DNA from: a virus
Taxonomy: Duplodnaviria; Caudoviricetes
Strand: one strand, 5' to 3'
IMG/VR virus record: IMGVR_UViG_3300006153_000003
DNA length: 64,000 nt
The notes under the pieces were generated by a model, which was not told the DNA's origin, did no database searches, and saw only the letters and a list, made by a program, of their open reading frames with translations. Positions 8,150-40,784 of the stretch are shown one piece after another (position 1 is the stretch's first letter; every line of letters starts with the position of its first letter). The translations under genes were made by a program, and so were the position numbers.

Positions 8150-8152
8150 TAC

Positions 8153-17620: not shown

Positions 17621-17626
17621 TGTAAA

Positions 17627-18151: not shown

Positions 18152-18249
18152 ATGAGCGGTTTCCATGTGGAATCGCTCTTTCATATAAGCTTCTTTGTCT
18201 GAGTGTCAATGGATTCAGACAAGGGAGTTTATCGGGAGGGAAGAGGTCA

Positions 18250-18902: not shown

Positions 18903-19017
18903 TTTGATTTAATAGTCATAAAAAATTTACATAATTTTGCAGAAAAACTCTTTACTCTTCTCTTAATGAATGGTATTCTTTATTATATCATTTCAAACTA
19001 TGAGGAGGTCATTGAGA

Positions 19018-19268
19018 TGGCAAGAAGAAAAGTTGAAGAGAAAAATTATGATGAATTAATTGAAATGTCAACTGAAAGAATTGAAGAATTGAAAGAAGAA
19101 TTGAAGCAGGAGAAAGCAAACCTGAAACAGTTGCAAAAGGACAAGATCAGGTACGAAGCTTTTGCTGAGAAACAGAAAAAGGAAGAAGAAATTAAGAAAG
19201 CTGCAGAATTGCTTGTATCATCCGGAAAGAGTCTGGAAGAAATCGAAGCCTTTTTGCAGGCAGAATAA
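19018..19268 (+). CDS. Small charged coiled-coil protein (moron-like)
   Basis: GAGGAGG RBS before ATG 19018; own terminator downstream. Confidence 0.6.
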
Positions 19269-19290
19269 TTAAAAATGTCGATGATATATA

Positions 19291-19320
19291 GGATCTGTCT
19301 TTATGGACAGGTCTTTTTTA
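19291..19320 (+). terminator. Rho-independent terminator
   Basis: GATCTGTC/GACAGGTC stem followed by a T-tract. Confidence 0.6.
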
Positions 19321-19351
19321 TTGTAAATACTTGATTTGGAGGAATTTATAA

Positions 19352-20086
19352 ATGGTAAAAAAAGATGTAAAAATAAAAGAATATATAAATATAGAAGAAA
19401 AAGCAATCATCACAAATCATTTGGTTGATTCCTATTTTGTAGAAAGACTTGATGGAACTATCGGTTATACTCCATATATGGTTGACGTTGCATTAGTAAC
19501 TGCATTTTTCTTATACTGCGTTGAAGGTATTAAATTTGACGAAGAAGAAAATATTTATAATACCGTAGTTTCTGATAAAGAACTTATGGACCTGTATACT
19601 ACTACCCTATCAGTACAGCTTGATAATGATGAACACCCAAATATTAAGATAGTTAGAGAAATCAACTCCATTATGAGAGACGTTGCCGATATGGTTGAAT
19701 TCAGAAAACAGCAGATTGTACATAATAATTCTGTTCTGAATGATAAATTGCTTGAAATTCTGGATATGCAGAAGCAAGTAGAATCCTTAAGGTTGGAAAT
19801 TGCTGAGAACGAGAACAAATTGTTACAGCAGCAATATAAGCAAAACGTATACAATGAAAAAGTGATGAGTCATATGACCCCAGAAGAAACGGCTGAGTTG
19901 AATCGAAGAATGCTAGATGAGAATATGGATTTTGGTAAATTAGCTGAGTTAGTAACTGAGAAATTTATTCACAGCGATATTCACACTTCAAATGTTGTTG
20001 AGATGAAACCTGCTCAAAAAAGAAAACCTGGGAGACCTAAGAAGTCTACGAGTACCGGCGCTATAAAGGAAACAATTAAAAAATAA
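19352..20086 (+). CDS. Probable tail assembly chaperone-like protein
   Basis: Synteny; basic RKPGRPKK tail. Confidence 0.4.
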   Translation: MVKKDVKIKEYINIEEKAIITNHLVDSYFVERLDGTIGYTPYMVDVALVTAFFLYCVEGIKFDEEENIYNTVVSDKELMDLYTTTLSVQLDNDEHPNIKIVREINSIMRDVADMVEFRKQQIVHNNSVLNDKLLEILDMQKQVESLRLEIAENENKLLQQQYKQNVYNEKVMSHMTPEETAELNRRMLDENMDFGKLAELVTEKFIHSDIHTSNVVEMKPAQKRKPGRPKKSTSTGAIKETIKK

Positions 20087-20484
20087 TGGGTGGAGTATTC
20101 AAAAATATGGCCTCTTTGGTGAACGCATTGCAGGCCGAGATGAGAGAAGCTATGGAAGAGGTGACTGAAAAATCTCTTAAAGATGCAGATAATGAAATGC
20201 AGGTTTTTGATGATGGTGGAACTCCTGATCGTTACGATAGAGTTTATAATTATGAGAATTCTCCCGATACACATGGTGTTTCTGGATCCGGCAATGTTGT
20301 AGATTCTGATATTTATCTTAATGATGGTTACGATTATTATACAGGAACTTTTTCCACCCCAGAAGTATTCAAAGCTGCTGAATCTGGAAGTTATGGAATT
20401 GTGGGTACACCAGGAACATGGGCAAGAATAGAAGAAGATATTCAGCAGAATATAGATAACAGCTTCGGGAAGAGATTTAATTAA
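20086..20484 (+). CDS. Putative tail component (HK97 gp10-like)
   Basis: Size, P.RYDR motif, synteny. Confidence 0.4.
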   Translation: MGGVFKNMASLVNALQAEMREAMEEVTEKSLKDADNEMQVFDDGGTPDRYDRVYNYENSPDTHGVSGSGNVVDSDIYLNDGYDYYTGTFSTPEVFKAAESGSYGIVGTPGTWARIEEDIQQNIDNSFGKRFN

Positions 20485-20652
20485 ATAAAAGACGAATTTC
20501 AACCGCATATGATTAGGAAGCGTTCCCCCAAGAATCTGACAGCGATTACGCTTCCTCATCCAAATTTACTGCCAGAGATTACATGGATATAACAATGAAC
20601 ACAAAGTCTAACATTCTTGACCGCATTTTAAATGTTATCCTCTGCATGTACT

Positions 20653-20681
20653 ATTTTATCATAGGATAAATATGTATGCAA
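20653..20681 (-). promoter_or_regulatory. Sigma-A-like promoter facing leftwards, antisense to the late operon
   Basis: TTGCAT-N17-TAAAAT with extended TG on the minus strand. Confidence 0.5.
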
Positions 20682-20727
20682 TTATTATAGAACGACTTAT
20701 TTCGACATATAACCACTACTCTTTTAT

Positions 20728-20744
20728 CTCATCTAAATGGCAAT
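20728..20744 (+). repeat. Shufflon crossover site CTCATCTAAATGGCAAT
   Basis: 17-mer identical at 20728(+), 21970(-), 30490(-), 32610(+). Confidence 0.9.
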
Positions 20745-21485
20745 ATGGATACATTAAAATGTGTCACAGCAGGAGGAATGGCTGCTGAAGGATGGTATCG
20801 AGTATATGAAGCTACTGTAGCAGTTTCAAGCATTTCTGGTTTTGGGTCAGGTGGCGATAATGGGATAATTTTTATTTCTACGAATTACAACTATTCTTCT
20901 CCGATGTCTTGCATATTATTATATACAGTGGAATATGGCGGCATTATCCATTGGAACTGCATATCTTGTTCCTCAAATAATGATGTTAGAATTATTGACA
21001 AAATTCGCTTTAGTCTTATTCCTGGATCTAAAGTATCTATTGATATACACTATCGCACATCAAATAATAACAACTTTGAAATCAAACTCATCTCCAATAG
21101 ATTTGGGAAAAAATTCCATCGATTGGAAAATGCGCAGCCTATCACAGATAATCCGTTAACAATCTCTGAGTATGATATTCCAGTGACCTCTGATCTGGAT
21201 GTTGAAAGAACCGTGTTTATAGAAGGCGGGATCTGGTATAAAACAAATAAGTTTGTTTTGATTTCTTTGAATAAAACCATTACAAAGGATACCGGAGGAT
21301 GGAATACGTTATCTTCAGCTATACCAACCGCAAAAGAACAATGCTTTGCACCATACTTGTCTGCGGATTTAGGAGTACAAGGAAATTTAATGGTTATTAA
21401 TAACTCATTACAAATAGATATTCCAAGCGCTGCGATTGGTAAGACATTCACCGTTAGAGGGCAGATAATGTATAGGTTAGCATAG
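20733..21485 (+). CDS. Silent tail-fibre C-terminal cassette E (remote shufflon pair)
   Basis: Begins in frame at CTAAATGGCAAT (L-N-G-N), no RBS; contains the TSDL junction. Confidence 0.8.
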   Translation, partial: LNGNMDTLKCVTAGGMAAEGWYRVYEATVAVSSISGFGSGGDNGIIFISTNYNYSSPMSCILLYTVEYGGIIHWNCISCSSNNDVRIIDKIRFSLIPGSKVSIDIHYRTSNNNNFEIKLISNRFGKKFHRLENAQPITDNPLTISEYDIPVTSDLDVERTVFIEGGIWYKTNKFVLISLNKTITKDTGGWNTLSSAIPTAKEQCFAPYLSADLGVQGNLMVINNSLQIDIPSAAIGKTFTVRGQIMYRLA

Positions 21486-21489
21486 GGCT

Positions 21490-21981
21490 TTATACAGGAT
21501 ACTTAAAGAAACGAACTCTAACACGTTGCGAAACAGTAGAATATATGTACCATACTCCAACATCCCGAAATACGTGATCCATAACGGAATTGTCATCAAA
21601 ATGTGACATAACAACCGGAATATAATTATCACTATTCGGAGCGTCTGATATACGAACAAAAGAACCGCCTGTCGTAACCACAATACAGTCAACATAGCTA
21701 AAATCAGAGTTTGTGATATAGATTCTCCATCCTGCCCAGTCACTACCATTATAGAAATTAAACGCCAATGGGGCACTATCAATACCAAATAAAGCTACAA
21801 CTATAGAAGTGGGTGATCGTTTCAAAATAACCGCACTTCCATATTTATAACTATTATTTGGCAAATCGTCGCTTAAGTAGCTGGAACCGGATAAAGAATA
21901 TGCGAAAAAACCAATAGGTAGCTTAGTTGCCTTAAGTAAAACACTTTCACTTATCATAACATTTCCGATATTGCCATTTAG
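21490..21981 (-). CDS. Silent tail-fibre C-terminal cassette F (remote shufflon pair)
   Basis: Starts at the LNG site, ends FFKYPV like the expressed fibre; clearly paralogous to cassette D. Confidence 0.85.
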   Translation of the reverse strand, partial: LNGNIGNVMISESVLLKATKLPIGFFAYSLSGSSYLSDDLPNNSYKYGSAVILKRSPTSIVVALFGIDSAPLAFNFYNGSDWAGWRIYITNSDFSYVDCIVVTTGGSFVRISDAPNSDNYIPVVMSHFDDNSVMDHVFRDVGVWYIYSTVSQRVRVRFFKYPV

Positions 21982-21986
21982 ATGAG
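21970..21986 (-). repeat. Shufflon crossover site (inverted)
   Basis: ATTGCCATTTAGATGAG is the reverse complement of the 20728 site. Confidence 0.9.
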
Positions 21987-22045
21987 AAGACAAACATTCT
22001 TTTTGCCATACTATAGCCTAAAAATTACGAAAGGAATTCAAACAA

Positions 22046-22222
22046 ATGAATACAACTAATGAAACTGTTACTATTTCGAATGAGCAGCAGTTAAATTCAA
22101 AAATAATTGATGTGATTATTGATATTTTAGCAAATAATAATTTATCTATTGCTGATGCAAAAAATATTCTATATGTAACATCAAAAAAATTATCTCAGCA
22201 AAAAGTTAAATCTTCTTTATAA
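22046..22222 (+). CDS. Small hypothetical protein (58 aa, not in the ORF track)
   Basis: GAAAGGA RBS, MNTTNETVTISNEQ...; 3' end overlaps the convergent gene. Confidence 0.5.
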   Translation: MNTTNETVTISNEQQLNSKIIDVIIDILANNNLSIADAKNILYVTSKKLSQQKVKSSL

Positions 22223-22496
22223 TTTGACTTAACTTCTGTGATATATTTTCTAGTTCACTTCTAATCTCCCATGATTCGGTTTGGTCGCTCCCTGTATTAG
22301 AATTAATATTTTTGAGTTCCTTTTCAATATTCTCCAAATAATCTTTCGGAGAATGTTCATCAAAACCATCTGATTGAATATTTCTTATTGCGTCCATAAT
22401 ATTACAATTTTCCGGATCCCCATCATCAAAACAATTATTATTAAAAATGCATTCACTTACACATTTCCCGTTAACAAAAGGGCAGAATGATTCCAT
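22206..22496 (-). CDS. Cys-rich hypothetical protein (moron)
   Basis: FCPF...C...C N-terminus, GAGGT RBS, AT-rich upstream region. Confidence 0.6.
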   Translation of the reverse strand: MESFCPFVNGKCVSECIFNNNCFDDGDPENCNIMDAIRNIQSDGFDEHSPKDYLENIEKELKNINSNTGSDQTESWEIRSELENISQKLSQIIKKI

Positions 22497-22677
22497 ATAA
22501 AAATACCTCTTTCAAAATTTTATAATATTATTATATAACAATACACCATATTTTCCATATAATTTTTATTTGCTAAGCGAATAAACAAGATTATTTCATG
22601 TGTAGGAGAAAAAGATTAACAATCACTCCTACTATTTTTATTATAAAATTCAAGAATAAAAGGAGTACATAAAATAT

Positions 22678-22935
22678 ATGAACAACACTAAAACAATTGA
22701 ATTGCTGCGAAAACGGAATACTCAACTACAAGAAGAACTTGACCGATTAAAGGAATTAAACACGAAACATTCCGACAAACCAGAAGATAAGAAAATTTCA
22801 GAATTAATCGCTGACCTAGAGAACATTCGCAAAGAATGGATGAATGTTTTGGAAGAATTAAATCATGATCGAGAAGAATACTGTAAATTATTAGAAGACT
22901 TACATACTATTCGAGAAACATTCAAAATGATATAA
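22678..22935 (+). CDS. Coiled-coil hypothetical protein
   Basis: AAGGAG RBS. Confidence 0.55.
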   Translation: MNNTKTIELLRKRNTQLQEELDRLKELNTKHSDKPEDKKISELIADLENIRKEWMNVLEELNHDREEYCKLLEDLHTIRETFKMI

Positions 22936-22959
22936 GAATAAAATTTCACAGGAAAAGAG

Positions 22960-23766
22960 GTGATAAATATGATTGCAATGGATTTTGAATATGATGGTGA
23001 ATATTTAAAAAATTACGGATTTACAATCTGTAGTATAAATGAAAATGGTTTCAATACCATCACTACGGATTCACAGGCAACTTTTAATAATGTAAAATTA
23101 ATGAATGGTAAACTATTTGAAATTACTACTTCTCAGTATGAAGATCGTTTGGAAATCAATTTCCAAATATGCAAGTATACTTCCGGCCATAAATTACATC
23201 CTATTTCCCATTACGAGGCAAGAGAATTAAAACGTTGGTTAAATAGACCTACCTTTAAGAGATTTAAGTTTATACAGCCTTACTGGGCAGATATTTATAT
23301 GGAAGGAAGCTTTAATGTAAAGAATATAGTATGTGGTGGAGAAATCTTTTTACTAGAACTAACTTTCATTAGTAATCATCCCTTTGCACTACACGAACCT
23401 ATCACCCATAGGATATTCACCTCTGCTACTAACGAATCTTATACTTTTTTTGACACATCAGATGAGATCGGATATATATACCCAGACATAAAAATCACTT
23501 GTCTGCAAAACGGGAAATTAGAAATAACCAATTCTAACGAAAATAGGATTACCGAAATAAAGAACTGCTCATCTGGTGAAATTATACAATTCACTCCAAA
23601 ATTATTGATGTCTACTTCTCTCCCGTCCCATAAGATTCAAAACGATTTCAATTATAAGTTTTTCAGAATATCTAACTCCTATAACAATCGTAAGAATACT
23701 TTAACTTTCTCACTTCCTGTAGAAGTAGAAATAACATATTGTCCTTATGTGAAGGTGGTGATGTAA
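22960..23766 (+). CDS. Distal tail protein (Dit)
   Basis: DFEYDG N-terminus, size, position before Tal. Confidence 0.7.
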   Translation: MINMIAMDFEYDGEYLKNYGFTICSINENGFNTITTDSQATFNNVKLMNGKLFEITTSQYEDRLEINFQICKYTSGHKLHPISHYEARELKRWLNRPTFKRFKFIQPYWADIYMEGSFNVKNIVCGGEIFLLELTFISNHPFALHEPITHRIFTSATNESYTFFDTSDEIGYIYPDIKITCLQNGKLEITNSNENRITEIKNCSSGEIIQFTPKLLMSTSLPSHKIQNDFNYKFFRISNSYNNRKNTLTFSLPVEVEITYCPYVKVVM

Positions 23767-23767
23767 T

Positions 23768-26700
23768 ATGGCAATAAAGATAAATTTTGATAGTGCTGGC
23801 AGACCAGAAATCCCCACATTCATACTTTCTGAGAAAAATGGAGATCATGTAGGTGTATTAAGTACAGTATCTCAAATTCACACTATAGGTAATTTAAATT
23901 CTTTTTCTGAATTTTCCTTTTCTATATATAAAGTATTAAACGAAGAAAAATGTGAATTCTGGGATGATATAGATAATTTCCATATCATGTATATTCCAGA
24001 ATGGGATAAATGGTTTGAAATTTATGTAGAAATAGATGAAAAAGATAGTTGTGTAAAAAATGTAACAGCTAAAACTATCCAAGAAGCTGAATTATCTCAA
24101 ATTTTACTGTTTGATATAGAAATAAATACAGAAAAAGATATAGAGAAGGATGATTATGTTCCTACTGTTCTATTTGAGCACAATAATGCAAAAGCTTCCT
24201 TATTACATAGATTGCTGGCTGATAAGGCACAGCACTATAAGATAATTCATGTTGATAGCACTATAGCCAAGAAACAACGGAGTTTTAGCTTTAACAATAT
24301 CTCTATTCATGATGCATTCCGTGAAATCTCTGAAGAACTTCACTGTTTATTTGTTTATGGTGAAGATAGTGGTTCAGAAGGAATCCCAAGAACAATTTCT
24401 GTATATGACCTAGAATCGAATTGTAATAAATGTGGCTACCGTGGAGAATATATGGGTATATGTCCAGAATGTGGTAGTCTGGATATTGATGAAGGGTACG
24501 GCGAAGACACTACTATCTTTGTATCAAATGAAAATTTGGCAGAAGGTGTTACCTTTTCAACAGACACGGATTCTGTAAAAAATTGTTTCCGTCTTGAAGC
24601 TGGTGATGATGATATGACAGCAGCAATTGTAAATATAAATCCTTCTGGTACACGATATATCTGGTATTTCCCAGATTATATGAAAAAACGTATGTCAAAA
24701 GGGCTTGTAGAGAAAATAGATTCTTTCAATACTCAATTAATCTACTATGAAAAGTCTTATCAGGAAAACTTGAATGCAACGATATTAAGCAACTATAATC
24801 AACTTATTGATAAATACCGGACTTATAAAAACACTTTGGAGAATATATCAGTCCCGATTACAGGATATCATAATTTGATGAAGATCTATTATGATATCAT
24901 AGACTTTAAAGGATATCTGCAAAATTCCCTGATGCCTAATATAGAAATATCAGAAACGAGTGTCACACAGCAAGCAGGTTTATTGACGGCAGGCAATCTC
25001 TCTCCTGTTTCTGTTGAGAACACATCCTATATTTCCCTGGCAACCGCTAATAGCGTGATTTTGTCATATGCCAAGGTTTTTATAGACACAGCAAAATACA
25101 AGGTAAAAGTAAAATCATCTAGTTTGACAGGAACTACTTGGACAGGTAATTTTACAGTTGTTAGCTATACAGACGACGAAGATACTGCTGACAGTCGTAC
25201 TATCACCATACAGATCAATGATAATTATGAGAATTTTGTAAAGCAAAAAATAGATAAGATTCTTACGAAGGAAAATGAAGATATCAGTATTATCGGATTG
25301 TTCAAGAAAACTGATGTAAATTTCAAAAATGATTTGAAGAAGTATAGCTTATCTTGTCTTCAGGTCATACATGATGCTTGTCAGGCATGTTTAGACATAT
25401 TGATTGAGCAAGGTATCTCAAACATGAAATCTGATTTATATGAAAAAATATATAAACCGTACAGAGATAAGCTAACCTATATCGAACAGGAAATTAAAGT
25501 GCGTGAATCAGAGATTGCCATCGTTGACGCAATTTATGATAAAGATGGTGATGTCGTAGCAGATGGCATGAAATCACTTATACAGAAAAAACGCAGAGAA
25601 ATTTCTAAAATTCTTGATTTCAAAAAGTATCTTGGAGATTACTGGAATGAATTTTGTTCCTTTAGACGTGAGGATTTGTGGAAGAATACTAACTATATTT
25701 CAGAAGGTTTGGACAATGCACAGCTATTCAAACAGGCAAAAGAATTCCTGGAATCAGCAAAAAAGGATCTCATTAAATCAGCAACACAGCAGCACAGCAT
25801 CTCTACTACCCTTAAGAATCTTTTAGTAATGGAAGATTTCAAACCTCTTGTCGAACATTTTGCAGTAGGAAACTGGTTAAGAATCGGTGTTGATGATAAA
25901 GTTTACAAACTTCGCTTGATTTCTTATGAGATTGATTATGAAAATCTTGATACTATTACTGTTGAATTCTCTGATGTCGTAGACGCATTTGGATTAATGA
26001 AAGATATTGAAGATATACTGAATCAGAGCCAATCCATTTCCAACTCCTATGATTCTGTAAAACACCAGGCTGAAGAGGGAGACAAGGCAAATGGTAGGTT
26101 GAAAGGATGGGTTGGTAAAGGGCTTGAAGCCACTACTATCAAAATCATGAATAACGCCGATGACCAAGATTATGTTTTTGACCGTCATGGAATGGTTTTC
26201 AGAAAAAAGGATCCTGATACGGATACCTACTCTCCTGTCCAAGTGAAAATCATAAATTCCACTATTGCTATGACCACTGATAATTGGATGACTTCTAAGG
26301 TCGCTGTCGGAGAATATATTTACCTGGATCCACGAGACTGGAAATATAAAACCGGATATGGGGTAATTGCTGATACTTTGATTGGTAATCTCATTCTTGG
26401 TGAAGAGGTTGGTATTTATAATGATAAAGGAACCATGACCTTCAAAGAAGATGGTCTGACGGTCACGAATGGCATTAATACTTTCCAGGTAAATCCAAAT
26501 TCCAAGACACTTTTGACTCTCTCCCATAATGATAGGAGGATTCTATACGTGGATGAGACTGGCGAATTGCATATTGAAGGTGACGGTTCTGCTCTTGATA
26601 TCACAGCTAATGGTACAGTGGAAGGCATGAATACTAAGATAACTCAGAATGCAAAAGCTATTACATTAGAGGCCAATCGTGCATCAGAAGCAGAAGGAAA

Positions 26701-27286
26701 ATTGTCAGCTTCTATTGAAGTAAATGCAAACGCTATTACTCAAAGGGTACAAAAAGATGAATTTGGTTCATACATGGAGCAGAATTATGAGAGCTTTTTG
26801 ATTGGATTTAATAAAAGTAGCAAGGTAATTCAGATAACCGATGGAGAAATCGCTATCTATGATAATTCCAAAACCAATAGTAAAAAGCGTGCAAGTTTCG
26901 ATGAACGTGGCAATAGTTTTTGGCGAGATGGTTATCGTATTGGTACAATAGGTACGAATAAATTAAAAGACTATCCATCAAAAAAAGGACTAGATTTTGA
27001 CCTGGAAACAGATGGTGCTTATATGACGTGGGCCTATAGAAATAAAACCGATGATGATGTTTATACCATGAAATGGACATATGCTGCTGAAAACTATGGT
27101 GATTATGCTGCTGATATGTTACATGCGGGGTGTGATATAGATATGCATAATTTCAATATATATAACGCAAAAATCTCAGAAGGATCTGTTAAATTCAATC
27201 TTCCAGGTATTACAGATATATTTGAAGCTGGCGGTATACGATGGAATTTCCAGAAAGGAAGATTAGTTGATGCAGCAGTCGTATAG
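23768..27286 (+). CDS. Baseplate hub/tail spike protein (Tal-like, prophage tail)
   Basis: Follows Dit; LRLISYEIDYENL..VEFS and YGVIADTLIGNLILGE motifs of SPbeta-like tail proteins. Confidence 0.75.
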   Translation: MAIKINFDSAGRPEIPTFILSEKNGDHVGVLSTVSQIHTIGNLNSFSEFSFSIYKVLNEEKCEFWDDIDNFHIMYIPEWDKWFEIYVEIDEKDSCVKNVTAKTIQEAELSQILLFDIEINTEKDIEKDDYVPTVLFEHNNAKASLLHRLLADKAQHYKIIHVDSTIAKKQRSFSFNNISIHDAFREISEELHCLFVYGEDSGSEGIPRTISVYDLESNCNKCGYRGEYMGICPECGSLDIDEGYGEDTTIFVSNENLAEGVTFSTDTDSVKNCFRLEAGDDDMTAAIVNINPSGTRYIWYFPDYMKKRMSKGLVEKIDSFNTQLIYYEKSYQENLNATILSNYNQLIDKYRTYKNTLENISVPITGYHNLMKIYYDIIDFKGYLQNSLMPNIEISETSVTQQAGLLTAGNLSPVSVENTSYISLATANSVILSYAKVFIDTAKYKVKVKSSSLTGTTWTGNFTVVSYTDDEDTADSRTITIQINDNYENFVKQKIDKILTKENEDISIIGLFKKTDVNFKNDLKKYSLSCLQVIHDACQACLDILIEQGISNMKSDLYEKIYKPYRDKLTYIEQEIKVRESEIAIVDAIYDKDGDVVADGMKSLIQKKRREISKILDFKKYLGDYWNEFCSFRREDLWKNTNYISEGLDNAQLFKQAKEFLESAKKDLIKSATQQHSISTTLKNLLVMEDFKPLVEHFAVGNWLRIGVDDKVYKLRLISYEIDYENLDTITVEFSDVVDAFGLMKDIEDILNQSQSISNSYDSVKHQAEEGDKANGRLKGWVGKGLEATTIKIMNNADDQDYVFDRHGMVFRKKDPDTDTYSPVQVKIINSTIAMTTDNWMTSKVAVGEYIYLDPRDWKYKTGYGVIADTLIGNLILGEEVGIYNDKGTMTFKEDGLTVTNGINTFQVNPNSKTLLTLSHNDRRILYVDETGELHIEGDGSALDITANGTVEGMNTKITQNAKAITLEANRASEAEGKLSASIEVNANAITQRVQKDEFGSYMEQNYESFLIGFNKSSKVIQITDGEIAIYDNSKTNSKKRASFDERGNSFWRDGYRIGTIGTNKLKDYPSKKGLDFDLETDGAYMTWAYRNKTDDDVYTMKWTYAAENYGDYAADMLHAGCDIDMHNFNIYNAKISEGSVKFNLPGITDIFEAGGIRWNFQKGRLVDAAVV

Positions 27287-27309
27287 ATAAACTGGAAAGG
27301 GGAAATATC

Positions 27310-27498
27310 ATGGCCAATATAAATAAAAACGAAGGCAGAGCTTATATTATGCCAAAAGGTACTCCTGTAAATATAGAAGAATCACCTTCTTTAAATGGAC
27401 AAGTACCCACCTATTCATTAGAGATGAATTTATTAAAAGAAGTCAATCAAAAATTAGATTTATTACTCACATCACTAAAAATATCAATAAAGGAGTAA
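27310..27498 (+). CDS. Hypothetical tail-region protein
   Basis: RBS, operon position. Confidence 0.5.
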   Translation: MANINKNEGRAYIMPKGTPVNIEESPSLNGQVPTYSLEMNLLKEVNQKLDLLLTSLKISIKE

Positions 27499-27506
27499 TC
27501 TTTAAT

Positions 27507-27731
27507 ATGGAAAAACCATTACTTTTAGTACGCGAAGAGTTTATGAGCGATCTGGCAGATTTGATTAATCAATCACGTCTGCCTTTTGTTATTATAGAGC
27601 CTATATTAGAGAAATTTTTAGAAAATGCCAGAGGTGCTATCAAACAGCAATTATCGGATGAAAAATTTCGATACGAAAAATATTTAAAGGAAAAGGAAAA
27701 AGAAGAATCAGGAAAAAATTCTGATGAGTAA
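27507..27731 (+). CDS. Hypothetical tail-region protein
   Basis: KPL...REEF...L..LIN.S.LP motif common in tail modules. Confidence 0.55.
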   Translation: MEKPLLLVREEFMSDLADLINQSRLPFVIIEPILEKFLENARGAIKQQLSDEKFRYEKYLKEKEKEESGKNSDE

Positions 27732-27803
27732 AATATATAAAGCTCTTAGTTTCGTCTAAGGGCTTATTTTTATGGATTCTCAAGCAATTATGCATTTGCT
27801 TGT

Positions 27804-28844
27804 GTGTCCAGGAAAGGAGTCAGGATGATACAGCAAAATGGATATCTAGCAGTACAACATATACGGGTTCGTATCAATCATAATATCATCAGCACTGTTA
27901 ATCTGGTTCAAGGTGACACAGCCCGTGAATTTCATTTTTTCTTTGACGACTACATCATCCCAGAAGGTGCAGAATTTCGTATTTATATTCGTAAACCGTC
28001 TGGTTGTGAAATATATAGTCATTGCTACTTACGAAATGATGAAATCGTTGTGCAACCCACTTTACAAATGGTTGCCGAAAAAGGACAGAACTTAGGTCAG
28101 ATACAAATTATAAAGGATGACAAATTGCTTAACACTTTCGTCTTCTATCTTGCTATCGAAGAAAATCTTATCTTCTCCTCCTCTATTACTTCTTCAAACG
28201 AATTCGATCTAATCAATGATTTCATAGATACTGCAAGGCGGTTAATCCCAGAAATAGAAAAAACACTTGCAGATGCCCAGGAGCAAGAAGCTAAACGAGA
28301 GGATTCAGAGAATGATAGAAAAAATAATGAACTGGTCAGAATTCTTAATGAAGATGAACGAGTAAATAATGAAAATACACGTATAGCTAATGAAATTATA
28401 CGAAATGAAAACGAAGAAGTCCGGAAAGCAAATGAGATTGAACGTCAAAAAAATACAGGCATTGCCATAAAAGAAGCCAATACTGCCAGAGATAAGGCAA
28501 ACGAAGCTACTAAGAATGCAAATGACACTGCTCAAGACATAAAAGATAAATTAGCTAATGGTGAATTTAGTGCAAGTATCCACGTAGGTGATGTAACAAC
28601 TGGAGATGCTAGCAGCGAAGTCGAAATCACAAATACTGGCACGGCTAAAGATGCTGTATTTAATTTTAAAATCCCCAAAGGAGATACAGGTGAAAGTGGT
28701 ATCACTACTCCCATCAGCGGTTTTCTCTCTTTATCGGTAGATGATTTAGGCAATCTATATGTACATTACAATGATGAACCCGAAAATCAAGAATTTGAAT
28801 ATGATCCGGATACCGGAAGTTTATATTATATCACACCAGATTAA
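27804..28844 (+). CDS. BppU-family upper baseplate protein
   Basis: VQGDTARE...YIRKPSG BppU_N motif; NE..R heptad repeats; FKIPKGDTG. Confidence 0.75.
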   Translation: MSRKGVRMIQQNGYLAVQHIRVRINHNIISTVNLVQGDTAREFHFFFDDYIIPEGAEFRIYIRKPSGCEIYSHCYLRNDEIVVQPTLQMVAEKGQNLGQIQIIKDDKLLNTFVFYLAIEENLIFSSSITSSNEFDLINDFIDTARRLIPEIEKTLADAQEQEAKREDSENDRKNNELVRILNEDERVNNENTRIANEIIRNENEEVRKANEIERQKNTGIAIKEANTARDKANEATKNANDTAQDIKDKLANGEFSASIHVGDVTTGDASSEVEITNTGTAKDAVFNFKIPKGDTGESGITTPISGFLSLSVDDLGNLYVHYNDEPENQEFEYDPDTGSLYYITPD

Positions 28845-28867
28845 TAAGAAAGGAAGGATGATAATAT

Positions 28868-29920
28868 ATGGGAAAAGTATTAATTGGAAATATTAAGGGA
28901 CCTCAAGGACCAACCGGCGTAAGAGGCGGTATGTGGTTACAGGGAACTGCAGTTACAGGTACAAGTACAGAAGAAACTTCATTTCCTGATTCAAATATCA
29001 CTTACGCAATTATCGGAGACGCTTATTTTAACGTAGAAACGTGTAATGTATATGCATGTACTAAAGCCGGAAATCCAACTGATGCAAAGTGGGTTTATAC
29101 TGGGAATATTAAAGGTGTAAAAGGTGACACTGGTAGCACACAATCAATTCAGAATGCGGTTCTTGAGTTTAATGAAGCTCTTACTCGCGAAAATATTGAA
29201 TCAACTGATACTGTTGAGACAATCTTTGGAAAGGTTAAGAAATATTTTACAGATTTAGGCTCTGCTGCTTTTATGAATGTTGTAAATAATGTCACTCAAT
29301 CAGAAGCAGGACAAGCGGTACTTGATGCTGCTGTCGGAAAATACCTTGAAGAGAAAAAGTTTGATATAAGTAAAATTATAGCAAATCGAAACATCACAGA
29401 ACCCGGATTTGTTATGGATGGCAAAACCGTTGCCGACGCTCTTACTGAGCTAAATGGCAAATTCGCAGTAACAATTATAGAGGGGGACTTGTTTGAATAT
29501 GCGGAATTGTTACCTGTCGGATTCTATACGTTTGGAGCAAATGCAAATACGACTAATGTTCCGGACTCCCCATCTGCTGGATGTATTATAAAACGCACAT
29601 CCTCACATATTTCCATTATTCTTGTGGCATATGGAACTGGAAAATATTATTGCGTTGAATATGGTGGTAATTGGCGAAAGTGGAACAAATTAGTACTAGA
29701 CTCTGATTTAGAAGTAATTTCATTTTCCCAAGAGATTATAGCCGATACAGCTACAGCATTAAGTTCAGCTCCACAAAGTAAACAATATATACCTGTCGTA
29801 ACTACAGTATCAGGAACACCGAGATATGCGGGAAGTTTTTGCTTTACATCCGGCTCATGGTATTTTACAGCTAATAATACACAAAGGTATGGATTTGCTT
29901 TTTATAAGTATCCTGTATAA
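28868..29920 (+). CDS. Tail fibre/receptor-binding protein: constant N-terminus plus currently expressed cassette A (29450-29920)
   Basis: Collagen-like GNIKGPQG start; crossover CTAAATGGCAA at 29450-29460; ends FYKYPV. Confidence 0.85.
   Translation: MGKVLIGNIKGPQGPTGVRGGMWLQGTAVTGTSTEETSFPDSNITYAIIGDAYFNVETCNVYACTKAGNPTDAKWVYTGNIKGVKGDTGSTQSIQNAVLEFNEALTRENIESTDTVETIFGKVKKYFTDLGSAAFMNVVNNVTQSEAGQAVLDAAVGKYLEEKKFDISKIIANRNITEPGFVMDGKTVADALTELNGKFAVTIIEGDLFEYAELLPVGFYTFGANANTTNVPDSPSAGCIIKRTSSHISIILVAYGTGKYYCVEYGGNWRKWNKLVLDSDLEVISFSQEIIADTATALSSAPQSKQYIPVVTTVSGTPRYAGSFCFTSGSWYFTANNTQRYGFAFYKYPV
29441..29460 (+). repeat. Shufflon crossover site inside the expressed fibre gene
   Basis: CTTACTGAGCTAAATGGCAA versus CTTACTCATCTAAATGGCAA at 32606. 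Confidence 0.88.
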
Positions 29921-30015
29921 GAGGAGATCCCATGATTTCAGCGAAAGGAAATAGAAAACCGAATTCACAGCATCTTTATAATATTGTTACAAGATAATGA
30001 GTTGATTTTCGTAAT

Positions 30016-30501
30016 TTACGCCGGATACTTGTAAAAACGAATAGTCATATTTTGTTCAGTAGGTGATATCACAAGCCACGAATTTGCGCCCCGATTTCCA
30101 TAAACTGAAACGCCTGTATAATCACTACTTACTCTTAATACAACAGGGATATAATTCATGCCTGTTATGTTGGGGACATAGTTATTGCTACCACGGACAG
30201 TATCCATTGTGACATCCGTATAGCCTAAATCAGAGGTTAGAACATATGGAATCCATGTAACTTCTTGTTCTCGATTAATCATTGAACCTGAGTACAACCG
30301 AGAAGGAATATCTAATAGTCCAGTATACACAATTGCCAAGAAATATGAATCTCCAGCAAAATATCCAGGTCTAGAATATCCGAGGGTTCTAATAATAACA
30401 CCGTAATTCCCTGGAAAATTTCCGCCAGAATTTTTCCATTCGCCTATACTCCATATTTTGAACGAATTTCCCCTAGATATAGTATTTATATTGCCATTTA
30501 G
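30016..30501 (-). CDS. Silent tail-fibre cassette B
   Basis: Open frame from the LNG site (LNGNINTISRG...) to FYKYPA; TSDLG junction. Confidence 0.88.
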   Translation of the reverse strand, partial: LNGNINTISRGNSFKIWSIGEWKNSGGNFPGNYGVIIRTLGYSRPGYFAGDSYFLAIVYTGLLDIPSRLYSGSMINREQEVTWIPYVLTSDLGYTDVTMDTVRGSNNYVPNITGMNYIPVVLRVSSDYTGVSVYGNRGANSWLVISPTEQNMTIRFYKYPA

Positions 30502-30506
30502 ATGAG
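30490..30506 (-). repeat. Shufflon crossover site (inverted)
   Basis: ATTGCCATTTAGATGAG. Confidence 0.9.
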
Positions 30507-30607
30507 AAGTTAAACTTTTCGAAAGACACTTGTAATTTAGATTTTTATGTCATATAATATCGGTAAAAATCATTTTGATAAATAAAGCGTATAGAGGAGG
30601 AATATTA

Positions 30608-31267
30608 ATGATTTCTACAAAAGATATGGCATTTTATTATCCTAATGGTGAAGAAATCAAAAAAGAAATATTTTTAGATTTCTATAGTAAATGCTATTAT
30701 ATGAATAATAATGTTTTTGTCGAAGATGAGATTGAGAAATTATTAGATAAAGGTAAAAATAATTTGACAGAAGAGGATTTGTTTAATATTTTAGCTTGGA
30801 AGATTGGGAAGATTAATCACAAAAAATCCAATCCAGATGATGGTATAATATATTATAAGGATTGGAACAAAGAACTTTTAGAAGCTAAAATATATAAAGA
30901 TTCATTGGACAAAGAGTTTTTTTCTTGCATTAAAAAAAGTTTATTAGAAATTAATGGTGAAGAATTGATCGATTATATAAACAAATTGAAAGATATAAAT
31001 CATCTAGGACCAGTGTATATTGTCACATTGAGATATTTTTCAACAAAAGGGAAATATCCAATTTATGATAGATTTGCATATAAAGCAATACAAGCCATTT
31101 TAAATAATCATATTCCTTTTGATTTAATTCCTGAAAAAAATACATTAAATAAAAACATTAATGATATATATAATGAATATTTAAAAAAATTACAAAATAT
31201 TTTTCCAGAGAATTTTAGCGAACGAAAAGTTGACCAAGCATTGTGGGTTTATGGACATTTATTTTAA
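30608..31267 (+). CDS. Moron inside the shufflon; possible HhH/OGG-fold DNA glycosylase-like protein
   Basis: GAGGAGG RBS; ILAWK ... HLGPVY..TL..F...KYPIYDRFA..A ... RKVDQALW pattern; very AT-rich. Confidence 0.5.
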   Translation: MISTKDMAFYYPNGEEIKKEIFLDFYSKCYYMNNNVFVEDEIEKLLDKGKNNLTEEDLFNILAWKIGKINHKKSNPDDGIIYYKDWNKELLEAKIYKDSLDKEFFSCIKKSLLEINGEELIDYINKLKDINHLGPVYIVTLRYFSTKGKYPIYDRFAYKAIQAILNNHIPFDLIPEKNTLNKNINDIYNEYLKKLQNIFPENFSERKVDQALWVYGHLF

Positions 31268-31285
31268 ACACTTTGATTAATAATA

Positions 31286-31313
31286 TTGTCACTCAACTAA
31301 GTATCTAATATCT
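31286..31313 (-). repeat. Degenerate shufflon site; 25/28 direct repeat of 33470-33497
   Basis: TTGTCACTCAACTAAGTATCTAATATCT versus TTGCCATTTAACTAAGTATCTAATATCT. Confidence 0.7.
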
Positions 31314-31344
31314 ATATTATAATTTGATTTTTAATTCTTAAAGT

Positions 31345-31380
31345 AATAAAAGACATCAGTACCTATCTGGTGTCTTTTAT
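31345..31380. terminator. Bidirectional terminator between the moron and the recombinase
   Basis: ATAAAAGACATCAG/CTGGTGTCTTTTAT stem. Confidence 0.65.
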
Positions 31381-31419
31381 CAATTATATGTAATTATTGT
31401 AGTTGATTATTTTGTGCAT

Positions 31420-32412
31420 TTATGCACTCAAATATTTTTTATGATGATACTGTACACTTGCTTGGTCAACAGTACAGTAAATCATAGTAGTTTCGAGTTT
31501 TGCGTGTCCTAAGAAGCGAGAAACTTCTTGTAAGGGCATTCCTCTATTCAATGCGTTAGTTGCTGCTGTCCGACGAAAACGATGTGGATGAGCGTCTTCA
31601 ACACCAGCGCGTTTGCCAATGCGTCGAATAATATCTTCTGCACCAGCTTTTGTTAATCGTTTGTTTGGTTTCCTTAATCCTACAAATAAAGCAGGGTTAT
31701 CATCATCCCGGCTATCTAAATATTCTTTCATGTACATACATGATCTGTCGTTCAAGTAAACAATTCTTTCTTTTCCTCCTTTCCCATACACGAGTAAGTC
31801 TCTTGTCATGAAATTCAAATCTTTTCTATCAAGACTTAAAAATTCACTTACTCGAACTGCTGTACTATACAAGAATTCTAACATTGCCTTATCTCTGAGA
31901 TTAGTGCAGTTTCGAGATAGTAATTCCCTTTCTTCGTCTGTGTAAGGTTTCTTTAGAATCTGTTCCACCTTGATATCTGATACGAGAACCATAGGATTTT
32001 TACGGATTCGATCACGGTCACGTAACCAGGTGAAAAAGCTATTAAAGACTGCTCGTACATTTCTTAAGGTTACATTTGCGACTTTCCGTGTTGCTTTGTA
32101 GGTTCTCATGTATCTGGATATATCACCATCTGTTATCATATCTACAGGTTTGTTGATGTATGATAACAGACGATGTAATTCATACTGGTATCGTATTGTT
32201 GTTTCTCTGGATCTGCCTTCAAGCATCTTTGCAATAATGAAATCTTCCAAGTCATCCATCCAACTGTCGTCTATAACCATTAGTTCCGTATTTTTGACTA
32301 AATCACAATCAGCAAAAGAGATTTGCATGATTTCTTTTAATTCCCCTAATTGTTTTTCATCTAAAATGTCTTGTGCTTTTCTCAATACTTCCATAATTTT
32401 TTGTTCAACCAT
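31420..32412 (-). CDS. Tyrosine recombinase (XerD-like), shufflon invertase
   Basis: Catalytic R (TAVRVSE), K (GKGGKER), HxxR (HRFR), H (LGH), Y (TTMIY); embedded among the cassettes. Confidence 0.92.
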   Translation of the reverse strand: MVEQKIMEVLRKAQDILDEKQLGELKEIMQISFADCDLVKNTELMVIDDSWMDDLEDFIIAKMLEGRSRETTIRYQYELHRLLSYINKPVDMITDGDISRYMRTYKATRKVANVTLRNVRAVFNSFFTWLRDRDRIRKNPMVLVSDIKVEQILKKPYTDEERELLSRNCTNLRDKAMLEFLYSTAVRVSEFLSLDRKDLNFMTRDLLVYGKGGKERIVYLNDRSCMYMKEYLDSRDDDNPALFVGLRKPNKRLTKAGAEDIIRRIGKRAGVEDAHPHRFRRTAATNALNRGMPLQEVSRFLGHAKLETTMIYCTVDQASVQYHHKKYLSA

Positions 32413-32609
32413 ATTTCACACACTCCTTTATACTCTTTTGGTTTCAATATGGTTCTTCTGTATTTATTGGAAAAACATACCAAAAATATGTTCGGTATAA
32501 AGGAGAGTGAGATAAGTATAGAAAATTTCTTGCTTTCCATCATGTAAAAATTTGTTTCGAAATGTTATATTGTAATCGCGCAGGTAGGAAAATCAATGGA
32601 AATTGCTTA

Positions 32610-32626
32610 CTCATCTAAATGGCAAT
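32610..32626 (+). repeat. Shufflon crossover site
   Basis: CTCATCTAAATGGCAAT. Confidence 0.9.
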
Positions 32627-32944
32627 TTTATAATGATATCGGGAACTGGTGGTAGTTTAGAAGCTATAGAGGGAGTAAGTGAAATATATTTTGATGATTA
32701 TTGTAGATTTTGGCATAACAATTTTATAGGATGTGTAAGTGTTACTTTCACTAATTTTACAGAAATACCAGCTTGGCGTGGATTTATACGATTACCCTTT
32801 AAAACATATCGAGAGTGTGTGACACATCTATACGATGCACCAGACATTCAAGTGTATGCAGGTACAGGAACTGCAGTGAATACTATGTCACGCCCCATAC
32901 CTGTGGGGAAACATCATTTTGACATGGTAGTTTCACTCATCTAA
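32615..32944 (+). CDS. Silent tail-fibre cassette C
   Basis: In frame from CTAAATGGCAAT; unrelated single-domain tip without the SDL junction. Confidence 0.8.
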   Translation, partial: LNGNFIMISGTGGSLEAIEGVSEIYFDDYCRFWHNNFIGCVSVTFTNFTEIPAWRGFIRLPFKTYRECVTHLYDAPDIQVYAGTGTAVNTMSRPIPVGKHHFDMVVSLI

Positions 32945-32976
32945 CATAGCATTCCTGTAAATTGAATTTCGCGACT

Positions 32977-33480
32977 TTACACTGGATACTTGTAAAATCG
33001 AACGCCTACGCTTTGTTCAACTGTAGAATATATTCTCCATTTGTCACTTTCCCAAAAAATATGTTCTAGGCATTCATTAGTCTTATTATGATCGAAAACA
33101 ACAGGTATGTAATTAAATGCATTTGGTGCATTGAGGATTTCAACAGAATGATCCGCAACTGTATTGAAAAAAATGTCGACATATCCTAAATCAGAGGTTC
33201 GCACATAAAACTGCCAATCTCCCCAATTAGTACCATCATAGAATTTAGTAGCTAACGGTGTAGAACCGATTCCGGTTAAAATCACTTTTATATTTGTCTG
33301 GAGTCTTTTTAAAATAATAGCGTTTCCATAAGCATAGCTAAAGTTTGGTAAATCTTCACCCTTATATCCGGCTCCACTTAGTATATACATAAAAAGCCCT
33401 TGCGCTGCAATCTCTACTGCTTTATTCAAAACACTTGTTGATAAAACGGATTCGTTTGTGCTTCCTAACTTGCCATTTAA
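32977..33480 (-). CDS. Silent tail-fibre cassette D
   Basis: In-frame TAG immediately precedes TTA AAT GGC AAG; ends FYKYPV. Confidence 0.88.
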   Translation of the reverse strand, partial: LNGKLGSTNESVLSTSVLNKAVEIAAQGLFMYILSGAGYKGEDLPNFSYAYGNAIILKRLQTNIKVILTGIGSTPLATKFYDGTNWGDWQFYVRTSDLGYVDIFFNTVADHSVEILNAPNAFNYIPVVFDHNKTNECLEHIFWESDKWRIYSTVEQSVGVRFYKYPV

Positions 33481-33487
33481 CTAAGTA
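33470..33487 (-). repeat. Shufflon crossover site (inverted, terminal)
   Basis: TTGCCATTTAACTAAGTA. Confidence 0.85.
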
Positions 33488-33647
33488 TCTAATATCTTTC
33501 TTCAATTTACACAATTTCACAGAAAATAGTACAAATGAAAGAGCAATTTCATCTGTATTATTTTCACTCATTTCAGAGTAAAACAAGGTTTTCTAGCCTT
33601 GTTTTTTTTATACCCAAAATTCAAAAAAAGAAAGGAAGAAAAATTTT

Positions 33648-39052: not shown

Positions 39053-40784
39053 CAATGTTAACAACCTAACTCAAGCAACTACAACATATAGTGTTTCTTT
39101 TAATTGGCACGGGATTCCCTGTGCCTTTCTTTATTTATAACCACTAATACGATTAAAATATTGCACAAAATTCGCCCATAAAAACCAGCATATTTACTAT
39201 TGACATAAGCTCCAAAAAATGCGGCGCAGCCCTTGTTTATATTACTTTTTTAAGGGGGCTGCATCGTATGAATTTAATTCAAATCTTAGTCGATATTATC
39301 TGTAACACATTACTTGATCCACATGTCCTTGAACGGGCCAGAAACAGAAAAGGGGCTTTTACACGCAATTGCGGGAAACTTCCCTATTGGACATTGATCA
39401 AACTGTTATTAAGAAATTCCAAGAAAACTATTTCTTCATCACTGGATGAATTCTTTACCGAATTGCGGCATATATCAGGAATTCCAATCTCTGATACTGT
39501 GAAATGTTCCCAACAGGCTTTCAGCAAGGCCCGTTCCGGCATTGATCACTCTATTTTCAAAGAATGCTTCGAACGTGTACTTGACTTCCTTTGCAGCAGG
39601 GATTCCCTGGATTTCCATTCACGTTTCATGGGTGTATGGGGACGGCAGATCATTGCTGTTGACGGCTCTAAAATACCTCTTCCTAACCGTAAGACTCTTC
39701 TTGATAAATACGGCAGCATAGGGAGAGGCCAAAACTCTCCCACTGCCATTGCCAGTGTTGCTTTTGATGTACTGAATCACCGCATCCTTGATGCACAGCT
39801 CGAACCCATGAGCGTCGGTGAACGTACCCTTGCCATAAGGCATATGCAAAATATAAAAAGCAAAGCACGGACGAATCTATTATACACCATATTTGTCTTC
39901 GATAGGGGATATGCTTCAAAAAATTTATTTTCTTTTATCGAAGACACCTTACATGCCGGATATCTCTTCCGGTTAAGGACTAAATTTAACACGGATATTG
40001 ATGCACTCCCTGTACCGGCGGATCGAAATGGAATCAGTGACTATATCTTTTTCCTTGATGGCAGGAAAGTACGCATCCTTAAATTTTACCTCCCAAGTGG
40101 GACGGTGGAAACGCTGATCACAAATGATTTTGACCTTGCCAAAGAACTGTTCCGCCAGTGTTACTTCCTTAGATGGCCGGTGGAGGAGAATTATAAGCTT
40201 GTCAAAGAAAAGATCGGGCTCACTAATTTCCGGGGCTATTCCGAGAACTCCGTTCTCCAGGAATTCTGGATATCGGTATTGCTTGCAAACCTGGCTCTTG
40301 CCATAAAGCGGGAGACGGACGGCATTGTTGACAGCACCATAAACCAGAAAGGGAATCAGAACAAATATATGACAAACATGAATGAGCTTGTCGGATACCT
40401 GAGCCGTCACATAGGAGAATATATGGATGCTGATACAGACACAGAAAAGTATGGCATCATCCGCTGTATATTTGATTTTGCCGTATCTCACCGGGTGCGT
40501 GACAAAAAGGGCAGCGGGGAATCAAATCTACGTACAACTCCAAGAAAAGTCAAACATCATTACAATAACAAGACTACACACTAATACCATTTAAGAAAGG
40601 TGGTGGTGCCAGTTTCTTTATATTCTACAATACAAACGCCATATCTAAAAAAACAGCTGATAGCAACCAAGGGGAAAGTCTGCCCTTTTTTCAGTGTATT
40701 TTAATCATTTCTATCATCTGCTATTATTGGTTTAATAGCTTAATCCTATTGTGATATCATGCCACTACTAAGTTGTTAACATTG
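39053..40784 (+). mobile_element. IS4-family insertion sequence, 1732 bp, with 10-bp target duplication ATATTGAAAC
   Basis: TIRs CAATGTTAACAAC at both ends; TSD at 39043-39052 and 40785-40794; higher GC than flanks. Confidence 0.92.
39268..40584 (+). CDS. IS4-family DDE transposase
   Basis: AVDGS, FDRGY, Y..RW.VEE.YK..K (YREK) motifs. Confidence 0.93.
   Translation: MNLIQILVDIICNTLLDPHVLERARNRKGAFTRNCGKLPYWTLIKLLLRNSKKTISSSLDEFFTELRHISGIPISDTVKCSQQAFSKARSGIDHSIFKECFERVLDFLCSRDSLDFHSRFMGVWGRQIIAVDGSKIPLPNRKTLLDKYGSIGRGQNSPTAIASVAFDVLNHRILDAQLEPMSVGERTLAIRHMQNIKSKARTNLLYTIFVFDRGYASKNLFSFIEDTLHAGYLFRLRTKFNTDIDALPVPADRNGISDYIFFLDGRKVRILKFYLPSGTVETLITNDFDLAKELFRQCYFLRWPVEENYKLVKEKIGLTNFRGYSENSVLQEFWISVLLANLALAIKRETDGIVDSTINQKGNQNKYMTNMNELVGYLSRHIGEYMDADTDTEKYGIIRCIFDFAVSHRVRDKKGSGESNLRTTPRKVKHHYNNKTTH

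Follow-up and report, generated by a model that had tools for sequence, protein, structure and literature searches.

A probable tyrosine-recombinase shufflon of tail-fibre tips in a large gut phage

The 64,000-nucleotide stretch of phage DNA considered here, called the window (Duplodnaviria; Caudoviricetes; IMG/VR record IMGVR_UViG_3300006153_000003), carries a tail-fibre gene whose 3' part is one of six alternative tips. The other five tips are silent; three lie beside the fibre gene in a main array, which also holds a tyrosine recombinase gene, and two form a remote pair upstream. An earlier note, made by a model from the sequence, had read this locus as a shufflon that switches the receptor-binding tip of the fibre by DNA inversion. 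The locus, its relatives in sequence databases and the explanations that compete for it are described below. L numbers denote database contigs, P numbers database proteins or protein clusters, and c numbers cassettes in relatives.

Fibre gene, crossover sites and cassettes

The 10-bp core TAAATGGCAA occurs in six exact copies in the window, at 20734(+), 21971(-), 29451(+), 30491(-), 32616(+) and 33470(-), the positions and strands that the earlier note had listed. Shuffling gives a mean of 0.40 copies, and none of 100 shuffles gets to six. With the preceding base, all six copies read (C/T)TA-AAT-GGC and encode L-N-G, and from this L-N-G the reading frame is open through to a stop in each of the six cassettes, A to F. 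One copy lies within the fibre gene. The other five head the silent cassettes B to F, and direct reading of the sequence and its open reading frames (ORFs) found no open frame upstream of these five and no Shine-Dalgarno sequence at their heads, in keeping with the earlier statement that they lack a ribosome-binding site. The orientation of the sites alternates along the window (s1 to s6 = +,-,+,-,+,-), and the cassettes are arranged tail-to-tail in three pairs. Tips A, B, D and F end in (F/Y)KYP(V/A), so the ending of the expressed tip recurs in three silent ones (B, D and F), as had been claimed, whereas C and E terminate differently.

Each site stands against a fixed flank: the upstream genes end in LF1, the baseplate operon has LF2 at its left end, LF3 belongs to the fibre constant part, LF4 and LF5 terminate the recombinase module on its two sides, and LF6 lies toward the endolysin. 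The left arm of the site is semi-conserved even when it is non-coding, with T at -8 in 17, C at -6 in 18, and T at -5 and A at -3 in all of 19 flanks. The consensus T-W-C-T-n-A-n-Y, followed by the invariant core, makes up an asymmetric site of ~20 bp that is reminiscent of sfx sites. Two decayed LF6-type flank copies, at 31286-31313 (with the degenerate core TTGAGTGACAA) and 29976-30005, look like relics of former sites in the recombinase module and between tips A and B.

With the sites alternating, the map places B one inversion from expression (s3 x s4), D also one (s3 x s6) and C two, which bears out the earlier count. F is likewise one inversion away (s2 x s3), yet that event flips the whole baseplate operon. 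The N-half of E (E_N) and its L014 homologue, both silent, have a ratio of nonsynonymous to synonymous change (dN/dS) of 0.16; ratios for pairs with indels (c06/t170, c12/t166) are invalid and were discarded, and C differs from its L047 copy by too few changes.

The fibre constant part is 92-100% identical in 12 protein clusters bearing different tips and is the shaft of a trimer. In the AlphaFold2 (AF2) model this part is poor, and residues 200-350 are confident (predicted local distance difference test, pLDDT, 80-90) and form two beta domains. The tip model was aligned with chains of phage fibres and receptor-binding proteins (RBPs) by VIA-align Z score, with domain bounds at 192/201-277 and 277-350. 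Residues 201-277 match distal domains of a phi812 baseplate chain (Z 10.2), the AS12 tailspike (9.5), the phi11 RBP (7.8) and the Pa193 fibre (7.6), and residues 277-350 resemble C-terminal domains of tailspikes and fibres (Z ~6). Both tip domains align with the R2 pyocin fibre (Z 9.0) and phage K gp144 (Z 8.7). An alternative tip of relatives, c13 (P0015), carries Phage_fiber_rpt and Peptidase_S74. The position of the gene after Dit, Tal and BppU-like genes, and predicted distal domains with the fold of fibres and RBPs, both identify the product as a phage tail fibre or RBP. L-N-G is the end of a helix (188-197) preceding the first tip domain; the site at L195-N196-G197 lies at the boundary of shaft and tip, and a swap there would change a two-domain receptor-binding tip.

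Table 1. Positions in the window of the fibre gene, sites, tips, recombinases and neighbouring tail genes
Feature	Position	Strand	Remarks
Tail-fibre / receptor-binding gene, 350 aa	28868..29920	+	ORF; PHROG 21765; constant residues 1-194, L195-N196-G197, then tip A
Site s3 (CTAAATGGCAA), within fibre gene	29450..29460	+	Left flank LF3 coding (…L-T-E); LF3 joined to 8 different cassettes in DNA contigs
Tip A, 156 aa	29450..29920	+	Ends KYPV; currently expressed; 3' part of fibre gene
Silent tip B, 161 aa	30016..30501	-	Ends KYPA; site s4 30491-30501
Silent tip C, 109 aa	32615..32944	+	Short type; site s5 32615-32625
Silent tip D, 167 aa	32977..33480	-	Ends KYPV; site s6 33470-33480; fixed flank LF6 toward endolysin
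Remote silent tip E, 250 aa	20733..21485	+	Site s1 20733-20743
Remote silent tip F, 163 aa	21490..21981	-	Ends KYPV; site s2 21971-21981
Segment S2, between inverted sites s2 and s3	21982..29449	+	Two small ORFs, stem-loop element, Dit, Tal-like, two small genes, BppU-like, fibre constant part
Recombinase module, invertible segment between s4 and s5	30502..32614		orf219, decayed LF6-like relic (31286-31313), recombinase
Tyrosine recombinase, 330 aa	31420..32412	-	Xer-like; core-binding and catalytic domains, no arm-binding domain
Second-tier junction, tip A (CTCTGATTTAG)	29701..29711	+	S279-D280-L281; in linker of two predicted tip domains
Second-tier copy, B	30225-30235	-	
Second-tier copy, D	33186-33196	-	
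Second-tier copy, F	21701-21708	-	Diverged
Second-tier copy, E	21189-21194	+	Diverged
Dit	22960-23766	+	
Tal-like protein, 1172 aa	23768-27286	+	
BppU-like protein	27804-28844	+	
Second tyrosine recombinase, integrase, 409 aa	35879-37108		

Recombinase and arrangements in relatives

The earlier note placed an intact XerD-like recombinase in the middle of the main array. The enzyme is intact and lies within that array: Pfam finds Phage_integrase (1.1e-39) plus SAM-like N-domains and no other domains, and the catalytic residues are complete (R187, K214, H277, R280, H303 and Y312, with H277-x-x-R280). The closest solved structure is XerA (4a8e, 2.7e-32), and the alignment with XerA/XerD spans residues 53-321. 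The name XerD-like holds for the architecture only, as the scores stay under the curated Xer cut-offs (best NCBIfam model NF040815 XerA_Arch, 216.6 bits vs 220; XerC 161 vs 335; XerD 156 vs 330), and membership of the XerC/XerD/XerA dimer resolvases was rejected. A serine invertase of the Gin/Cin/Min/Hin type was also rejected, because only tyrosine-recombinase domains are present.

The sites bracket the recombinase gene in every lineage having the gene, including one with a 45% identical enzyme. The module has the opposite orientation to that of the window in eight contigs (including L014-16, L018 and L020-22), and it lies upstream of the baseplate operon in L017/L019. A scan for promoters and terminators gave matches no commoner than in shuffles for S2, orf219 and the recombinase, and no promoter was called.

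The module also holds orf219 (30608-31267, +), which belongs to a widespread unnamed family of ~240 aa with 242 matches and no Pfam family. Its AF2 model has a pLDDT of 95, and a G-x-G … P-I-Y-D motif is conserved. Foldseek against the PDB gives weak rows only, such as the HhH-GPD DNA glycosylase Ogg2 TM1821 (TM 0.46, E ~0.4-0.9). The distant L007 system lacks orf219, which is therefore probably a passenger gene. In some relatives an IS110-family transposase lies in the module, between orf241/219 and LF4 (L047:13194-14411, L048:13757-14974, L050 and L051). These carriers are the commonest relative, the P0013 form, with one arrangement in ~24 contigs, and switching in this form may be locked or slowed.

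The exact recombinase protein was looked up, and the 23 contigs so found were mapped onto the window. The earlier note had named a single arrangement among relatives as the outcome that would speak against a shufflon; several arrangements were found, with the same recombinase protein, flanks 99.9-100% identical and breakpoints in the core. Near-perfect homology of these contigs to the window always ends at a core. A reciprocal swap is seen between L014/L020/L031 (LF3|c02 … c03|LF5) and L018/L022 (LF3|c03 … c02|LF5), and the 6.9-kb baseplate region of the swap contigs is 99.9-100% identical to that of the window. In L018 and L044 the E/F segment lies the other way round, with 100% identity. L024 consists of window 28832-29460 (100%) joined in the core to window 21990-21275(-), that is, the constant region followed by tip F with E behind, and L029 joins the constant part (100%) to B. 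Fusions of B to the constant region also include P0010/P0209/P0212 and L025-L029 as a group (protein identity 98.8-100%), and those of F include L024, L059 and P0011/P0236 (100% at the protein level, two samples). Two of the five silent tips of the window, B and F, are thus caught fused to an identical constant region in other samples, and together with a tip fold like that of phage RBP distal domains this supports the earlier reading of the cassettes as switchable tips.

At least 12 tip types are carried by constant regions that are 92-100% identical. Seven tips occur in both states, silent and expressed, and on the same phage backbone at least five different tips take the expressed position. 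Across 19 fixed flanks and 30 cassette heads there are 45 distinct junctions, and all 45 join a flank to a cassette; F has been joined to 4 flanks and E to 3. Just outside the core, the variable base at -1 goes with the flank and that at +1 with the cassette, and therefore exchange takes place within the 10-bp core. Tip C has a 95% identical copy behind LF5 in L047-L058, and other short tips (c20, c14) are expressed elsewhere.

Larger modules are rearranged as well. The order in L017/L019 is tape-measure protein (TMP) … LF1'|pair|LF5 rec orf LF4|pair|LF2' Dit Tal … LF3, so that the recombinase module and the baseplate operon have traded places, an order reachable in three inversions. Because of the alternation of the sites, any one inversion turns an odd number of segments; cassette pairs, at odd positions, and large modules, at even positions, therefore permute separately. 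Cassette pairs change place between the remote and main arrays in relatives. S2 inverted relative to its neighbours was seen in no contig; L059/L060 have the E/F pair in the main or the standard remote array. Exact-pattern scans with LF3 plus core had no match in viral_contigs, and in metagenome_contigs they recovered the common P0013 arrangement alone. Of ~54 true contig ends, 4 lie within 5 nt of a core, among them that of L043, an independent assembly that is 100% identical to the window over 12.5 kb and ends exactly at the s4 core. Sequencing runs ERR2497918 and ERR2497919 likewise match the window at 100%. Such ends are suggestive of branching in the assembly graph, and co-existing strains would look the same.

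The family extends beyond close relatives. A lineage with a 66% identical fibre constant part has the same core, both isoforms (P0023, P0019) and a site just upstream of the baseplate operon; its contig L035 has two sites and no recombinase within 16 kb. Inverted sites bracket the baseplate operon and fibre constant part in three lineages (the window, the L016 lineage and L035/L037). L007/L009, with the 45% identical recombinase, have the core TAAATAGCAA and the same layout of constant part, site, pair, site, recombinase, site, pair and site. In Clostridium phage phiCp-D (L033, 21639-22616) and Terrisporobacter phage TPELB_ph1 (L034, 17645-18640) a Xer-like 'integrase', 30-32% identical, lies between the last tail or fibre gene and the holin; going by the annotation alone, no cassettes are annotated nearby.

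Second junction and genome context

Cassettes of the KYPV type share a second motif, whose exact junction is TCTGATTTAG: TCTGATTT(A/T/C), encoding S-D-L/F ~85-95 codons in. The 8-mer is invariant in all 11 distinct junction contexts and has TCT for its Ser without exception; the conserved Ile, Pro, Ala and Val residues elsewhere differ in codon use. The silent cassette behind LF5 in L017/L019 consists of A[1-262] (100%) and B[259-486] (98.7-100%). On both sides of the junction A and B share just ~55% identity, and the crossover is therefore confined to an 11-nt identity island. The C-half of A (A_C) also occurs with another N-half (c15), its N-half (A_N) with a third C-half (P0007), and c12_N is paired with c12_C or with a c07-like C-half. 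The exact tier-2 10-mer is retained in the 66% lineage, where the tip protein is only ~34% identical. Cassettes of the E type break at the same motif less cleanly; the c05 copy is TCAGATTTT, with identities of only 78-90%.

The reverse complement of TCTGATTTAG is CTAAATCAGA, which shares CTAAAT with the tier-1 core. The likeness of the two tiers is limited to this hexamer, the left arms differ, and no junction between a tier-1 flank and a tier-2 core was seen. Recombination at the second tier is somewhat more probably driven by an enzyme than not. The alternative is that these joints are rare microhomology events, kept because the linker tolerates joints.

The gene order of the window is terminase, portal, Ig-domain tail protein, holin and remote cassette pair, then the baseplate operon with Dit (DUF6558), Tal-like, BppU-like and fibre genes, the main array, an amidase endolysin and the integrase, beyond which lie DnaE, RecJ, RecD2, LigA and an intein-bearing NrdD. 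A 158,582-nt JGI contig is the recorded source of the fibre protein, and the window is part of a large phage genome. The related contigs have 'mouse gut metagenome' in their names. Among 50,697 phage records there was no DNA match and no match to the fibre protein, and the portal is only ~30% identical to those of Brevibacillus phage Sundance and the Lactococcus 949 group.

In the window, holin and RusA-like genes, and no tape measure, occupy the interval from the tail-tube to the Dit genes (16700-22960). In relatives a tape-measure gene lies beside the remote array; in L048 a 2012-aa TMP precedes that array. The stretches considered alongside the window were L048:1-760 and L019:3-2141, besides L044. 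L044, which carries the upstream flank of the window at 99.97%, has the E/F pair, then a seventh site flank (…cattactgag), then a Tad2-like and TMP-like segment (4319-9395). Its TMP-like gene (PhageMin_Tail, 5954-9268) is interrupted by two ORFs (55 aa, 398 aa), which look like an intron or homing-endonuclease insertion; the gene at L035:9132-10601 is unbroken and encodes 489 aa. Just within the left margin of the baseplate segment, at ~22603-22631, is a stem-loop-like element, AGGAG-N17-CTCCT within TAGGAGAAAAAGATTAAYAATCACTCCT, which is conserved also in L035 at ~65-100, in lineages ~66% identical in the fibre. It possibly serves as a transcription signal and so gives the baseplate segment orientation independence. 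Elsewhere, NrdD (41986-45309, -) has an intein-like insert, with an intein N-terminal motif at residues 419-513, and an IS4-family transposase (39268-40584, +) lies near it.

Competing explanations and relation to known systems

With high confidence, this large gut phage of siphophage-like type carries a shufflon (a multiple-inversion system), in which a Xer-like tyrosine recombinase serves alternative tips on one fibre. The shufflon is real and very probably active. In the proposed mechanism the phage-encoded recombinase would act on the asymmetric ~20-bp sites, and recombination between alternately oriented sites would invert an odd number of segments and bring another cassette in frame behind the constant 194 residues. 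In this reading the five stored cassettes are promoter-less and start-less. The recombinase gene would travel on one invertible segment, and the baseplate operon with the fibre constant region would form another. We infer that inversion is frequent enough for phase variation and that the tips differ in the host receptor.

Several observations weigh against this reading. In the contigs and proteins searched, no fusion of tip C, D or E to the constant region was found. All comparisons of isoforms were made between samples and on assembled contigs, and the same arrangement recurs in paired runs of one study (L018/L022, L017/L019 and the ~24 P0013-form contigs); this constancy points to slow switching or strong selection. 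Linkage is what suggests the embedded enzyme as the catalyst, and a second tyrosine recombinase, the integrase, is present in the window. Lastly, the 64 kb hold no homologue of the tape-measure proteins or of the TMP-like segment of relatives, and an element lacking its tape measure might be defective.

The last point leads to the possibility that the system is a fossil in this genome, defective and frozen in its arrangement, though relatives switch. The tape measure is possibly missing through site-specific deletion or possibly sited outside the window, and the seventh flank and TMP-like segment behind the E/F pair in L044 show how a deletion between direct sites could have removed it. A fossil is nevertheless unlikely: the six cores have no mismatch, no cassette frame is interrupted, the recombinase is intact, L043 stops at the s4 core as expected of an assembly-graph branch, and the source contig is ~158 kb, so that a tape-measure gene may lie beyond the window.

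It is also conceivable that the arrangements arose mainly by recombination between co-infecting related phages, with the core as a crossover hot spot and the silent cassettes as a by-product. In L059 and L060 the E/F pair is 99.6-99.8% identical, against only 87-91% identity to the window in the constant part or the baseplate operon, and therefore cassette pairs also pass between phages. The baseplate operons of the window and L014 are 99.98% identical, yet their cassette sets differ, and the constancy of arrangements within studies would fit such exchange too. As the main source of the arrangements it is very unlikely, since it leaves unexplained why start-less cassettes are kept open and in inverted orientation, the reciprocal two-cassette swap between the same flanks (L014 vs L018), the flipped recombinase module, the conserved non-coding left arm, and a dedicated in-array recombinase in lineages 45% apart. 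Exchange between phages and inversion are compatible, and one set of enzyme and sites would do for both. That another recombinase, the 409-aa integrase or a host Xer, inverts the DNA and the embedded gene does some other job such as dimer resolution might be argued from the 'integrase' of phiCp-D and TPELB_ph1, found between fibre and lysis genes with no cassettes annotated nearby, and from L035, whose lineage has both isoforms, but it is highly improbable, given that the sites bracket the embedded gene in each lineage having it, even at 45% identity, and that the gene travels with the array in L017/L019.

For the shufflon reading, the closest described system is the Rin shufflon of Bifidobacterium breve and B. 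longum prophages (Mavrich et al. 2018, PMC6109161), reported from Eggerthella lenta prophages too (PMC8778435), and the principle is known already. Both use a phage-encoded tyrosine invertase that lacks an arm-binding domain; both put several promoter-less variable C-termini (Rv) on a single constant RBP N-terminus (Rc) and have a short asymmetric crossover site before each cassette (11 bp in Rin), with inversions that end within the sites. However, Rin belongs to prophages of Actinobacteria and the present system to a large phage of Bacillota type, and the rix core is TTCCCTAACCC, compared with TAAATGGCAA here. The Rin recombinase flanks its array, whereas here it lies inside the array on its own invertible segment. 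In addition, the array here is split around a 7.5-kb baseplate operon, which it brackets in three lineages, a second exact junction inside the cassettes reassorts half-tips, and module positions are exchanged in natural isolates. By layout and site, rather than by recombinase sequence, the present system is a functional analogue or a variant of the Rin type, and no more than a candidate member of the Rin clade.

The shufflon of R64/IncI1 plasmids, reportedly described by Komano in 1999, consists of the Rci recombinase, 19-bp sfx sites and pilV tips. It shares with the present system a tyrosine recombinase, many-site inversions that permute and flip segments, asymmetric sites with one conserved arm and a short core, and alternative C-termini on one constant N-terminus. 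It differs in its target, a conjugative pilus adhesin, in an unrelated site sequence and in an rci gene outside the invertible DNA, and no large operon segment is known in it. R64 works like the present system, and membership is not claimed.

In the Min, Gin and Cin systems, switching of the tail-fibre C-terminus by DNA inversion changes host range; Min is multi-site, and a Fis-dependent enhancer takes part. The switching of phage tail-fibre C-termini by inversion is the same here, whereas Min of p15B, Gin of Mu and Cin of P1 are serine invertases (PMC6109161) with that enhancer, and the present enzyme is a tyrosine recombinase. The nearest precedent for two-tier junctions is the class of hsdS shufflons in type I restriction loci that have a tyrosine recombinase gene embedded in them (surveyed in PMC9881135). 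Examples are the Streptococcus pneumoniae ivr/CreX locus and Mycoplasma pulmonis hsd. In these loci the recombinase gene lies among the inverting cassettes, and two classes of inverted repeats in the genes let the half-domains TRD1/TRD2 reassort independently; their target, in contrast, is a DNA-specificity subunit and not a virion protein, and no structural operon is known in the invertible DNA.

A wider scheme, put forward tentatively and short of an even chance, is that one recombinase serves two non-cross-reacting core classes, CTAAATGGCAA at the border of shaft and tip and TCTGATTTAG in the inter-domain linker, to give N x C tip combinations instead of N. Tail modules, namely the baseplate operon, the recombinase module and the TMP segment of relatives, would also lie between such sites and be flipped and permuted, and cassette pairs would be traded between phages.

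A defined 20-bp site and a small recombinase are a potential tool to exchange receptor-binding domains in phages that infect laboratory strains. Tyrosine-recombinase fibre shufflons are scarcely documented in the literature, yet they seem common in gut Bacillota phages, and this locus is an unusually complete natural record of tip switching, of cassette-pair traffic and of an exact second junction. If the second tier and the operon-scale segments are driven by the enzyme, combinatorial host-range diversity could arise from few half-cassettes, and the baseplate operon would need to be an orientation-independent unit.

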